Source: Alphaproteobacteria bacterium (GTDB lineage: Bacteria > Pseudomonadota > Alphaproteobacteria > Bin95). From it: DNA of 64,000 nucleotides. The translations under genes and the position numbers were made by a program. The stretch lies in the NCBI GenBank assembly GCA_964291285.2, contig OZ219787.1, forward strand, positions 1,216,001-1,280,000, read 5' to 3'. A model generated the notes under the pieces. The model made no database searches. It was given only the letters and a program-made list of their open reading frames with translations, and was not told where the DNA came from. Shown one piece after another: positions 51,452 through 56,152 of this stretch. How positions within the stretch are numbered: the stretch's first letter is position 1; every line of letters begins with the position of its first letter.

Positions 51452-52714
51452 CTACCTCCCCGGGGCCGCCCCGTAGATCGGGAAGCGCGCCAGCAGCGCC
51501 TCGACCCGCGCCGCCGCGCCCGCCTCCGCCGCCTCGCCGCCCTTCAGCACCTCCACGATGAGCCGCCCGACTTCCCGGAACGCCTCCTCGTCGAAGCCGC
51601 GCGTGGTCGCCGCCGGCGAGCCGAGGCGCAGCCCGGAGGTGACGGTCGGCTTCTCCGGGTCGAACGGGATGCCGTTCTTGTTGCAGGTGATGCGCGCGCG
51701 CTCCAGCGCCTTCTCCGCGACATCGCCGGTGAGGCCGAGCGGGCGCAGATCGACCAGCAGCAGGTGCGTGTCGGTGCCGCCCGACACGATTTCGAGCCCG
51801 CCTTCCCGCAGGCTTTCGGCGAGCGCGCGGGCATTGGCGACCACGGCCTCGGCATAGTCGCGGAACCCGGGTTGCAGCGCCTCGCCGAAGGCGACCGCCT
51901 TGGCGGCGATGGCGTGCATCAGCGGGCCGCCCTGGAGGCCGGGGAACACCGCCGAGTCGATCCGCCGGCCGAGGCTTTCGTCGTTGGTGAGGATCATGCC
52001 GCCGCGCGGGCCGCGCAGCGTCTTGTGCGTGGTGGTGGTGACGATGTCGGCCCAAGGCAGCGGGCTCGGATGCACGCCCGCCGCCACCAGCCCGGCGAAA
52101 TGCGCCATGTCGACCATGAACTTCGCGCCGCACGAGTCGGCGATCTCGCGGAAGGGCCGGAAGTCGATCTCGCGCGGATAGGCCGAGCCGCCGGCGATGA
52201 TGAGCGCCGGCCGGCGTTCCTCCGCCAACCGCGCGACCTCGTCGAAGTCGATCCGGCTGTCCTGGCGGCGCACGCCGTATTGCACGGCGTCGAACCATTT
52301 GCCGGAGAGGTTGGGCGCCGCGCCGTGCGTCAGGTGCCCGCCGGCGGCGAGCGACATGCCGAGCACCGTGTCGCCCGGCTTGCAGAGCGCCATGAAGGCC
52401 GCCTGGTTCGCCTGCGCGCCGGAATGCGGCTGGACATTGACATGCGCCGCGCCGAACAGCTGCTTCGCCCGCTCGATGGCGAGCCGCTCCGCCCGGTCCA
52501 CCCATTCGCAGCCGCCATAGTAGCGCCGCCCCGGATAGCCCTCGGCATATTTGTTGGTCAGCACCGAGCCCTGCGCCTCCAGCACGGCGCGCGAGACGAT
52601 GTTCTCCGACGCGATCAGCTCGATCTGGTCGCGCTGCCGGTCCAGCTCCCCGCCGATGGCGGCGGAGAGGTCCGGGTCGGCGTCGGCCAGCGGCGCGGTG
52701 AAGAAATCGGCCAT
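51452..52714 (-). CDS. glyA: Serine hydroxymethyltransferase
   Basis: [31 protein letters not shown]. Confidence 0.97.
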
Positions 52715-52845
52715 GCGCGAGGGGCTCCCGAGTGCAGCCCCAGCCCATAGCAAATCCCGCCCCCGCCCGCCATAGCGCGCGGCCCATGGTAGTGTCTCAC
52801 TTTGACTTTACTGGGCGATCACAAGCCAGATGGAGGTTCCCATGG

Positions 52846-53127
52846 CTACTGAATCGTCGGATCGTTACCGAACATCTCCTGATGCAGGAGGCTCCCTACG
52901 GCTGAAATCAGAAGTTTGCGCATCGTGCGGAGCCGTGCTTTTTCGTCCTCGGACAACGTTGAGGGAAGTGATGCTTCGGTCAGGCGTGACAGAAGATCTG
53001 CTGCGAGAGTTGCACAGCCACGGATTTGGGCGAGTTCTCGAAGAGCTTGCGCCAACTCGAAGATGAACGCGGTCTCGGCGGTGCCGTCGTAGGCCATCTC
53101 GACGATCTTCCGGGTGTCCTCATCCAC
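52846..53127 (-). CDS. Hypothetical 93-aa helical protein (IS cargo)
   Basis: GTG start with GGGAG RBS, overlapping the upstream stop; ends just inside the IR. Confidence 0.55.
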   Translation of the reverse strand: MDEDTRKIVEMAYDGTAETAFIFELAQALRELAQIRGCATLAADLLSRLTEASLPSTLSEDEKARLRTMRKLLISAVGSLLHQEMFGNDPTIQ

Positions 53128-53347
53128 GGTAGGTCTCCCTCGTGTTCCGGTGCCGTCGGCAGCGCGGCTCGCCGTTCACCGTGTGGGTCGCCCTCGCACC
53201 GCAGGGCATCTCGCCATACGGGCCTGGGGCCGTGCAGCGCGGGCCGGGGTCCGGCCGCTGCTCCGGCCTCGGGGCATTGCGTCCAGCGACCATGCCCAGG
53301 AGGCCGAGCAGCACCGCGCCGCCCACGATGACGATGAGGGTTGTCAT
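53120..53347 (-). CDS. Hypothetical 75-aa protein, N-terminal TM helix and C/C/C/H cluster (IS cargo)
   Basis: MTTLIVIVGGAVLLGLLG; ATG overlaps the transposase stop (ATGA). Confidence 0.55.
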   Translation of the reverse strand: MTTLIVIVGGAVLLGLLGMVAGRNAPRPEQRPDPGPRCTAPGPYGEMPCGARATHTVNGEPRCRRHRNTRETYRG

Positions 53348-54255
53348 GCGCCGCAGGGATTGTTGCGGGTGCGGTAGCGTGTCCCCTTCGCCGGACCAGG
53401 CTTCTTCGGTGGCGGCGCGGCGGCGTCGATGAGGCCGACGATCCACTCCATGTCGTGCAGGCTCCTGTCCACGCCGGCGGCCATGGCGGGCGTCACCCTG
53501 AGCGTCTTGTGGACCCGCACGAAGTTGTAGAAGCAGAAGAACAGCGAGCTCATGTGGATATGGTTCTCGACCTTCTTGGAGAAGGCGTTGGTGAGCCGCG
53601 TGAACCGGCGCATCCCCATCCGCATGGTGAGGTTGTGGCGCTCGACGTGTGACGTGCTGATCTTCTCCGGCTCGGGCCAGCCCTCGACCGTCTTCTTGAT
53701 GATGCCGACGCACTCCGAAGGCGAGTAGCGTTTGGACGCCTCCTTGCCCGCTTCCAGCACGCCGTAGAGCTTCACGAGCTGGGCATAGTCCACGTCGCCC
53801 CCGAACGCGCCCTCGACGGCTTCCAGATAGGCGGCATGGCCATCCGTGGTCAGTTGCACCCGGTTCACCAGCCGCGAGCGCAGATCGTCCATGAGGTCGA
53901 GGGCAACGTCGGCTTCGCGGGTGCCGAACCGGTAGGACAGGATTATCTTCGAGTCGCTGTCGAGAGCGGTCCATGTCCAGAGGTCGCCCGCGCCTGGGGG
54001 AGGTTTCAGGGCGAAGGGGACGTTCTTCTTCTTGGCGTAGCAGAAGGCCCATATCTCGTCGCACTGGACGTGGCGGGCGTGAACCTCCCGGACTGCCTGG
54101 TCGTGGTGCATGGCGCAGGCATGGCCCGCGTCCACGAGCAGCTTGGAGACGGTGTTGATCGAGACATCCGCGATCCGCGTGATGGCCCGCATCGACACAC
54201 CCTCGACGAGCATGTGGAGGATGTGAGCGCGCTTGGCGGTTGAGAGCTTGTTCAT
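53344..54255 (-). CDS. IS1-family DDE transposase
   Basis: N-terminal HTH (LVEGVSMRAITR), QCDEIW, TTDG, HVERHN, RRFTRLTNAFSKK. Confidence 0.9.
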   Translation of the reverse strand: MNKLSTAKRAHILHMLVEGVSMRAITRIADVSINTVSKLLVDAGHACAMHHDQAVREVHARHVQCDEIWAFCYAKKKNVPFALKPPPGAGDLWTWTALDSDSKIILSYRFGTREADVALDLMDDLRSRLVNRVQLTTDGHAAYLEAVEGAFGGDVDYAQLVKLYGVLEAGKEASKRYSPSECVGIIKKTVEGWPEPEKISTSHVERHNLTMRMGMRRFTRLTNAFSKKVENHIHMSSLFFCFYNFVRVHKTLRVTPAMAAGVDRSLHDMEWIVGLIDAAAPPPKKPGPAKGTRYRTRNNPCGA

Positions 54256-54262
54256 GGCGTTG

Positions 54263-54310
54263 AAGATAAAGGACGATTGCACACTGTCAAGCACAATGTC
54301 ATTTTATCTT
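54263..54310 (-). promoter_or_regulatory. Transposase promoter inside an inverted repeat
   Basis: TTGACA-N16-TATCTT ending 7 nt before the ATG (leaderless-like); AAGATAAA...TTTATCTT arms. Confidence 0.5.
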
Positions 54311-55601
54311 TATGCTGCCATGGGGAGCTGGAGCTTGGCCCGCAGATACTCCATCCCCCGGTCGCCCTTCACGGCGTTGCAGGCGCCGCAGAGGAGTTGG
54401 AGGTTGCTGATGTGGTCGGTCCCGCCCTTGGCCCGCGCAATGATATGGTCCACATGAAAGTGCCGAAGCTCAAAGTGATGCTGGCAGCCTCGGCAGTATC
54501 CCGCCTGTTCGCCGTAAAGGTGACGCTTGTTGTTCGGGTGGTTGTACGGAAGCAGCGGGACTAGGTCCGTGCGCTCCGGCAGATCGGTGCGGACCGTGCC
54601 CTTGAAGAACATGCCCAGCTCGTCACGCATCCGAGTCTGGACAAGCTCGGCAGCCTTCGGGGATATGTCGATCCCCACCCATTGCCGCCCCGCGTCTTGT
54701 GCCGCAACGCACGTTGTTGCGCAGCCGCAGAACGGGTCGAGGATCATGCCGTCGGCCGGGCATGACGAAAGGATGATTCGGCGAAGAAGCGCCAGCGGCT
54801 TCTGTGTCGGGTATCCGGTCTCTTCCTTGCCCTTGGTCGTCGGGAACCATCCCCGGCGGCTGGAAAGCTGCATGATGTCCGACCAGACCGTCGAGAGCGG
54901 CATACCAGGGCTTTCGTCGAGGTATTGGCGGACGATCCCTCCGGCCCGCTGTCGGGTGCGGTAGGGCCTGCCCTTTTCATCCTTGTGCCGGAACCAGCGC
55001 AGATACCTGTCCGTATAGGGCGTGTATTGCCGCGCGTAGAAGTGCTTCCCGTATTCCGAGGCATAGGCCAGAAGACAGTCATGCACCTTCACGGGCTTCT
55101 TGCCGCCGACGCGCCCCCCGGACGGGGTGCCGTAGTTCCACACGATTTCGTTGATGAAGTTCCCGCGCCCGAAAATTGCGTCCATCACCAGCTTCAGGTA
55201 GTGAGACGCGAATTGATTGCAGTGCAGGTAGATGGTGCCGCTCGGCTTCAGCAGGCGGTGCATCTCCAGCAGCCGCGCCGCCATATAGACCAGATACGCC
55301 TTGTCGCTTGCCGTCATGGCGGCGAGCAGAACGCGATACAGGGCCGGGTGCTTCGCCTCGATGAGGTTGATCCACTCGGCGTCCACGTCCGTCAGCGTCC
55401 AGGTATCCTTGAACGCAGCCCCGGCGGCCTTGCTGCCGATGGGCGCGGCGTAGTTGGCTTGCGAGTTGAAAGGCGGGTCGAGATAGATGAGGTCAACCGA
55501 GGCACTGTTCATGCCTCGCATGATGTTCAGATTGTCGCCGGTCCAGACTGTCTGGTTAGCCCAATTCGGACTCCCTGGGGGGGGGTACTACGCTTTGGCA
55601 T
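54310..55601 (-). CDS. Beta-class N4/N6 DNA methyltransferase fused to HNH endonuclease; 5' end frameshifted at a C9 tract
   Basis: GDNL, DPPF, YPTQKP, DPFCGCAT; C-terminal CxxC..DH..GG....NL..LCxxCN; the open frame extends to 55587 and the candidate ATG 55601 needs one extra base. Confidence 0.85.
55577..55585. repeat. G9/C9 homopolymer tract
   Basis: CTCCCT-GGGGGGGGG-TACTA on the + strand. Confidence 0.9.
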
Positions 55602-55827
55602 CGGCCCACCGCGCTGCCGCCGCGGCCTGGGCGATCTCCTTGCGCCGTTCGGGCGTCATCGCGCGCGCGCGGGCTTTTCCTCCGGCGCGGCCGCCCTTGG
55701 CCTTGTTCGGCTGCCGGGGCTGCTCCTCAAGGGTTTCCTCGATGTCGCCGACTGCGATCTTGCAGACATGCACGGCATTGCTGATCACGTCAGCCGGGCG
55801 CTTCTGCCCCTGCGGTCCTGTGGGCAT
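55588..55827 (-). CDS. Small basic protein with KGG-like motif (IS-associated)
   Basis: MPTGPQGQKRPADVI...KGGRAGGKARA..MTPERRKEIA..AA.ARW; GGAGG RBS. Confidence 0.8.
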   Translation of the reverse strand: MPTGPQGQKRPADVISNAVHVCKIAVGDIEETLEEQPRQPNKAKGGRAGGKARARAMTPERRKEIAQAAAAARWADAKA

Positions 55828-56152
55828 CGTCGTTCCTCCTTGCCAGACGCGGCGATGGTATCACCGCTTGGGGACGATGCGAACAGGGTCGATTTGGCCT
55901 CACAAAGTCAAAGTGAGACACTACCCGGCCCATGCCGTCCTTGCATTGAGCTTTCTCAGAACGCAGACTGCTTCCCGCAAGCAATACGCGGACACCCGCT
56001 CTGTCGGGCCGCCCGCTGAATAGAACAGCCTGATACCCGGCAAGGGAGTAGCTACCCAGGCCCGGCGAATAGGCGGGGCTTTACGCATCCGCGTGTTGCT
56101 TGCAACGGCCCGACGCCAGCTTCGGGCCTTTGTGTCGAAGCGAGGCGCGGGG

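Follow-up and report, generated by a model that had tools for sequence, protein, structure and literature searches.

Slipped-strand mispairing is an established source of length change in homopolymer tracts, and Type IIG enzymes are built from a gamma-class methyltransferase (MTase) that follows an N-terminal PD-(D/E)XK nuclease. SSR tracts mutate 100-10,000 times above background, according to the available part of PMC11868660. In Campylobacter jejuni NCTC11168, the Type IIG restriction-modification (RM) enzyme Cj0031 is phase-variable through a poly-G tract, G9 being ON and G10 OFF; the accessible sections of that paper also report that both activities were lost together, that many alleles were tract-free and that one carried an interrupted tract (PMC4889913). 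Simple repeats also occur in the beta-class methylase genes of Type III mod phasevarions. Repeats are carried by 17.4% of mod genes, among them genes of environmental species, and a host that is no pathogen is therefore nothing unusual. Transporter insertion sequences (tIS) with passenger genes (Siguier et al., 2009, cited in PMC11891212) and transposon-like RM units (PMC2853133) have been described as well, and the portions of these sources at hand give them terminal inverted repeats, a short target duplication, a transposase and passengers that include methyltransferases. Chromosomal RM genes of Types I, IIG and III are known to be switched by repeats; in the present case such a repeat is found with a differently built enzyme carried on insertion sequences.

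The locus analysed here resembles Cj0031, as far as the available part of that paper describes it, in that a homopolymer in the reading frame would switch a single-chain methylase-nuclease, and the interrupted tract has a parallel in the homologue locus L066. It differs from Cj0031 in build and setting. Cj0031 has 1243 aa and its tract at base 2573, whereas the present gene encodes a 430-aa beta-class MTase with a C-terminal HNH domain and carries the tract after codon 5; moreover, it lies inside a multi-copy transposon, and it is known from its sequence, with a predicted activity. Type IIG was rejected as a class by build, since the enzyme has the beta order and a C-terminal HNH; it works like a Type IIG enzyme at most. 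A Type III mod phasevarion was rejected as well: no res-like gene, and thus no adjacent res helicase-nuclease gene, was found among the element's five ORFs. The simple repeat in a beta-class methylase gene is shared with the mod phasevarions, but here the nuclease domain is fused to the MTase. The terminal inverted repeats, target duplication, transposase and methyltransferase passenger are shared with tIS and transposon-like RM units, but the MTase-HNH fusion cargo and the putative repeat switch set the element apart from them as they are described in those portions of the sources. A phase-variable transposon-borne MTase-HNH was not found in the titles and abstract openings of the papers listed, a set that covers few subscription journals, or in the available part of the RM review PMC12707154; REBASE- or ISfinder-type tables may list such enzymes.

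The window, a 64,000-nucleotide stretch of contig OZ219787.1, contains the gene on its minus strand (Table 1). The order on that strand is GGTGG, ATG 55601, five codons, the C9 run and then codons for GSPNWANQTVWTGDNL. From 55587 onwards, 425 codons of the methylase frame are free of stops, and the first ATG, GTG or TTG in this frame is ATG 55521; on the 5' side, it is closed by the TAG (55590-55588) of the upstream 79-aa ORF, which is in the same frame. The repeat sits between the start codon and the gene body, and its length sets the frame, as in a contingency locus. The sequence bore out the original prediction that a C9 run between ATG 55601 and the conserved methylase N-terminus breaks the frame, that the window copy is OFF, with a TGA after 24 codons from ATG 55601, and that the upstream TAG is in frame with the MTase. 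The full-length product predicted for C10 occurs naturally in two other copies of the element in the same genome. Only 41 C/G runs of at least 8 were found in the 6.1-Mb genome (5 contigs), with a dip at length 8 (5 runs) and an excess at lengths 9-16 (36 runs). The genome probably belongs to the class Alphaproteobacteria, as one locus of G049, a genome of that class, is identical to L035, which bears this label. The C-run is likely to be a real frame switch, probably a selected one, and we consider slipped-strand phase variation of the methylase-HNH gene the probable explanation of it.

Table 1. Positions of the transposon, its genes and the frame switch in the window, and of related elements and C/G runs elsewhere in G000 (contig:position).
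Feature	Position	Strand	Remarks
8-bp target-site duplication, left copy	55926..55933	.	
Left terminal inverted repeat, 22 nt	55904..55925	.	100% complementary to right one
Small basic ORF of transposon chassis, 79 aa	55588..55827	-	No family match
Likely MTase-HNH start codon, overlapping end of upstream small ORF	55599..55601	-	SD-like GGTGG 55610-55606; in frame in two C10 copies
OFF-state peptide, 24 codons, read from ATG 55601 with C9	55527..55601	-	TGA at 55529-55527
C9 homopolymer, putative frame switch, OFF length here	55577..55585	-	Reads as G9 on +; C10 = in frame
Beta-class amino-methyltransferase body and C-terminal zinc-binding HNH, intact	54310..55587	-	Pfam PF01555 131 bits, PF01844 46 bits
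Promoter-like TTGACA-16-TATCTT before transposase	54290-54263	-	
IS1-type DDE transposase, single frame, 303 aa	53344..54255	-	Pfam PF03400 38.2 bits, cut-off 24.1
Passenger ORF, 75 aa, hydrophobic N-terminus	53120..53347	-	No family match
Passenger ORF, 93 aa	52846..53127	-	Weak PF21716 (addiction-antidote family) match, 17.3 bits, below cut-off 27
Right terminal inverted repeat, 22 nt	52788..52809	.	
8-bp target-site duplication, right copy	52780..52787	.	
Sister IS1595-type element copies	C2:1045386, C3:664786, C3:1312396, C3:2119374		L095, L100, L141
Promoter-spacer C/G runs, G000	C1:418681, C5:351356, C1:1134030, C4:670190, C4:317110, C4:678631		
Promoter-spacer C/G runs, G000, further	C4:718063, C1:426611, C1:572476, C1:822642, C4:11323, C5:357616		
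DQIPF/DHIPF-associated runs, G000	C1:149602, C1:790093, C2:378242, C2:1386002, C3:115326, C4:235189		

The methylase and nuclease domains (PF01555 and PF01844) lie in one chain and one frame. The methylase motifs follow the beta-class order, with motif IV (DPPF, at 42) before motif I (DPFxGxxT, here DPFCG at 289). D23, D42-P43-P44, C370/C373, D385-H386, N400 and C405/C408/N409 were invariant in 63 aligned full-length homologues; the four cysteines (C370/C373/C405/C408) are the zinc ligands, and D385, H386, N400 and N409 are the HNH residues. The predicted structure had a mean pLDDT of 82.7. Its best Foldseek matches were M.BceJIV, CcrM and M.RsrI, with a TM-score of up to 0.80 over the target and 16-23% identity; all of the listed matches were methyltransferases, and none was named as an MTase-HNH fusion. 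The protein is like M.BceJIV, CcrM, M.RsrI and M.MboIIA in fold and motif order, but unlike them in sequence, at 16-23% identity. It is a predicted single-chain restriction-modification enzyme, and its conserved residues suggest that the HNH would cut DNA. A viral collection gave one match only, to the HNH alone. Plasmids gave 31 records, all below 60% identity; none of the 12 that were listed extends beyond residue 367, so these stop short of the HNH.

Anti-SD pairing was -7.0 kcal/mol for ATG 55601 versus -3.4 for ATG 55521. The overlap of start and stop at 55601 likely couples the translation of the small ORF and the MTase-HNH. In L066, the same overlap with the upstream stop is found, the start being GTG, the C-run interrupted and the gene in frame. 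This layout supports ATG 55601 as the start, as had been proposed, and the same ATG is in frame in the two C10 copies. In a survey of 121 N-termini (the query and its 120 best matches), the segment before MRGMN was present in 106 proteins, mostly as M-x-x-P-N-W, and 15 were called later or differently; homologues do not begin at the position of ATG 55521 but before the PNW motif. It is extremely improbable that translation instead reads through the upstream TAG, or begins at ATG 55521, to give the enzyme. The TAG is in the methylase frame with C9 and with C12, and gene callers place the start late or elsewhere in 15 of the 121 proteins; however, the upstream stop (TAG, TAA or TGA) and its frame vary across loci built alike, and no amber-reading tRNA was found in the genome by ARAGORN, so the read-through route suggested earlier fell away. 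A start at 55521 would also lose D23 of GDNL and a confidently modelled core strand (residues 18-29, a strand and helix with pLDDT of about 88-95). An enzyme begun there would probably be crippled, because D23 is invariant and these residues are modelled with confidence.

The gene had been described as transposon-borne, and this was confirmed by the terminal inverted repeats, the target duplication, the transposase and the presence of three copies. The element spans 3138 bp (52788-55925) and has perfect 22-nt terminal inverted repeats, an 8-bp target duplication and five ORFs. The transposase scored 77 bits against NCBIfam IS1, below the cut-off of 100; the element may belong to the ISMhu11 group of IS1. 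A sigma-70-like promoter was looked for before the small ORF and before the methylase, and none was found at either place. The same chassis of small ORF and IS1-type transposase occurs with unrelated cargo at L162 (G002:C426) and L164 (G011:C1), where no run follows the small ORF (2/2). When the DNA of 17 genomes from the genus was searched, no close whole copy of the element turned up outside the present genome (G000). The window copy is inserted just upstream of a glyA-like ORF (51452-52753; function read from sequence), beside a glycosyltransferase cluster (PF01755). One and the same 8-mer borders the second copy on the left and the third copy on the right (C3:12088 and C3:783416); the halves of the target duplication are swapped between these two copies, and the third copy is without its first 71 nt. 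The swap suggests that the two copies, about 770 kb apart, likely recombined with each other.

The three copies are at least 99.9% identical. The tract is C9 in the window copy and C10 in the second (C3:12428) and third (C3:786205) copies, and both C10 copies encode the whole 430-aa protein. It is the sole difference between the window copy and the second copy; the third copy differs, in addition, by the 5' truncation and a 2-bp deletion. Two in-frame C10 copies would keep the cell ON, masking the OFF copy of the window.

Tract length was also read in three public runs of one study (X1, X2 and X3), as contigs only, which drop rare variants. The X1 contigs showed C10, equal to the majority of the three collapsed copies, and the same copy junctions as the assembly; X1 may be the source data of the assembly. 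X2 had C12 on a contig of 2644 nt, which takes in the left flank of the window site and is otherwise identical to the window, at a depth similar to that of the flanks. In the X2 strain the element looks single-copy and out of frame, so the cell would be OFF. X3 had C9 on a contig that runs on into another flank. Runs X4 and X5 contributed only small shares, X4 covering 5 of 30 bins, with the tract not among them. Uniform C10, the outcome named earlier as speaking against a switch, was not seen; contigs gave C10, C12 and C9. They show that tract length differs between samples; flipping within a population is a separate matter.

Long-read sequencing errs most commonly by dropping a single base from a long homopolymer. 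It is nevertheless unlikely that the window copy is really C10 and its C9 a consensus error of the assembly, in which case the tract may switch elsewhere. Sequencing errs most in long C/G runs, the two other copies and the X1 majority are C10, and the C9 of the window copy rests on the assembly; against this, X3 also has C9, and X2 has C12, two or three bases off. Out-of-frame tracts were also found in L019, L027, L062 and L063, whose contig names suggest short-read assemblers, a naming convention that we take them to follow. As a control for noise, homopolymers were compared across the multi-copy repeats of the assembly. Short ones were nearly invariant: among 2066 C/G runs of five, 2 departed from the modal length, and among 16 T8 runs none did; runs of 5-6 C/G and of 5-8 A/T in general were nearly invariant across the repeat copies, which argues against consensus error, although these runs are shorter than the present tract. 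All five multi-copy families with C/G runs of at least 9 varied in length, for example over 9-14 and 10-16. Such spreads exceed single-base error, yet a one-base difference of C9 versus C10 remains compatible with error, and the variation of all multi-copy C/G runs of at least 9 fits biology and sequencing error alike.

Under slipped-strand phase variation, translation from 55601 would stop after 24 codons with C9 and would give the whole 430-residue methylase-HNH protein with C10. One C gained or lost at replication would flip the gene at a high rate and in both directions. Because methylase and nuclease share one chain, the OFF state would abolish both activities together, and a switched-off cell would spare itself. 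The population would then contain two kinds of cell, those that restrict and are methylated and those that are open and unmethylated. Such a mixture could balance defence against phages with the uptake of DNA, and it may also affect gene expression. It is very unlikely that the tract instead throttles a gene fixed out of frame, with RNA polymerase slippage or -1 ribosomal frameshifting yielding little full-length enzyme. The CCC-CCC codons could re-pair in the -1 frame, and a weak 5-bp hairpin begins 4 nt past the run (-8.1 kcal/mol for 30 nt), but the length of the DNA tract itself varies, in-frame alleles exist, and the 7-, 8- and 11-bp repeats found at the same spot in the family are incompatible with such slippage. 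Furthermore, the shift that OFF alleles require is -1 at certain loci and +1 at the rest. A conserved frameshift signal was considered as well and rejected. Some leakiness may come on top of phase variation.

The homologues had been proposed as a place to look for a retained tract of variable length. We sampled 75 distinct homologue N-termini, chosen irrespective of repeats, with the own genome, exact duplicates and loci without an N-terminal match excluded. A simple repeat was present in the 60 nt before the conserved Asn in 14 of the 75 homologues, versus 42 of 7240 background windows of the same loci. Three of these 14 repeats precede an ATG that is itself in frame, and so do not act as frame switches; with L078, added by hand (it has two units of a 7-mer, of which its near relative L080 has nine), the total of frame-shifting repeats at this spot was 12/75. 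Three of the 12 were ON, eight were OFF and one was unreadable at a contig edge; the repeated units were single C or G bases, a 7-mer and two 8-mers. In a biased sample, drawn from relatives of genomes with a tract, 11 of 27 had repeats, which added (GA)10 and runs up to C19. The length of the 5' switch units was in no case divisible by three. Eleven other homologues of the 75 had a C/G run of at least 8 inside the gene, versus 1.15 expected from the flanks; eight of these genes were frameshifted and three were open. A 5' repeat and an internal run did not occur together in any gene of the sample (0/75; 1/102 in the full set).

Alleles of both states were found among close sequences. G176 has one C8 copy (ON) and two C7 copies (OFF), and L078 and L080 share their 5' end, with two copies of the 7-mer (OFF) versus nine (ON). 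Four other loci have the same layout of small ORF and IS1-type transposase; three of them carry C9, C12 or C14, and in the remaining one the run is interrupted and the gene in frame. In all, a tract was present at either place in 23 of the 75 homologues (about 30%) and at neither in 52. Most of the homologues are thus tract-free, many of these lie beside IS1595-type transposases, and two of the three copies here are in frame, which lends no support to the earlier idea that the OFF state eases a toxic nuclease into a naive host; switching ON later would presumably face the same unmethylated chromosome.

About ten of 104 homologue genes were broken without a C/G run, including L088 and L091, which have a 5' repeat; these breaks indicate that the MTase-HNH family also decays. 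In a sister IS1595-type element of the same genome, the ATG of another MTase-HNH gene is followed by 2 or 8 units of an 11-bp repeat, and this gene is out of frame in all four copies. It could be argued from this that the tract is a mutational hot spot in costly, decaying cargo and that OFF alleles are one-way knock-outs, the more so as OFF exceeds ON by 8 to 3 both for the 5' repeats and for the internal runs. We regard this as distinctly unlikely. Decay leaves unexplained the roughly tenfold excess of long runs in these genes, open ones included, over the flanks, and also why differing repeat types occupy one 5' spot and why a gene has at most one. In addition, about one third ON is the expectation of free drift over three frames, and the gene body here is intact.

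In the run contigs, the sister element appeared in its two-unit form in X1 and as an empty site with an 8-nt overlap in X2, and was uncovered in X3; no new number of 11-bp repeats was found in X1-X3. The relative G025 has 21 or more nearly identical copies of an IS1595-type element that bears a methylase (for example L079). The N-terminus of P0105 (protein sequence only) contains QPDSPTAR twice at the same spot before the conserved Asn, as would result from an 8-nt repeat translated in all three frames.

On a quick tree (10 rows omitted), the 5' repeat label changed 16 times, and 13 of these changes were forced by strong branches. The 12 genes with 5' poly-C were rejected as one clade (p-AU 9e-130; 21 rows omitted), in a test of a sequence-defined group made after the first tree had been seen; the loci include kin and near-copies and are not mutually independent, so p-values are overstated. 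The nearest protein, L012 (77%), is without a tract, and the 5' junction resembles more distant loci, indicating that module shuffling, as read from these junctions, contributes to the repeat counts.

Many homologue records bear names that we take to be sponge-associated (Poribacteria, Ca. Aldehydirespirator). As a wider and more tentative reading, one that we find conceivable and would not yet call probable, frame switches may have evolved repeatedly in a large family of transposon-borne, single-chain beta-methylase-HNH restriction enzymes of uncultured marine (likely sponge-associated) bacteria, as poly-C, poly-G, GA and 7-, 8- and 11-bp repeats at the start and as poly-G inside, one per gene. 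Small transposons would then deliver switchable defence or methylation modules across phyla, and copy number would act as an OR gate on the state of the cell. The interest of phase variation here lies in apparent switching on a beta-MTase with a C-terminal HNH in about 30% of the sampled family (23/75), with many unrelated repeat types. If true, natural ON/OFF alleles in long-read metagenomes would make the methylation motif assignable without culturing and would provide a means to test whether the HNH fusion restricts; phase variation itself would be transposon cargo.

Long C/G runs were also seen elsewhere in G000. Many lie between -35-like and -10-like hexamers in multi-copy elements, with spacers of 15 to 21 nt by copy, and are candidate promoter-spacing switches. 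A repeated element has, in six of its copies, a C9-C14 run behind a gene that closes with DQIPF/DHIPF-stop, presumably an ssb-like protein end. A C11 run at G000:C3:1126339 precedes another methylase gene (C3:1125914) by about 425 nt.
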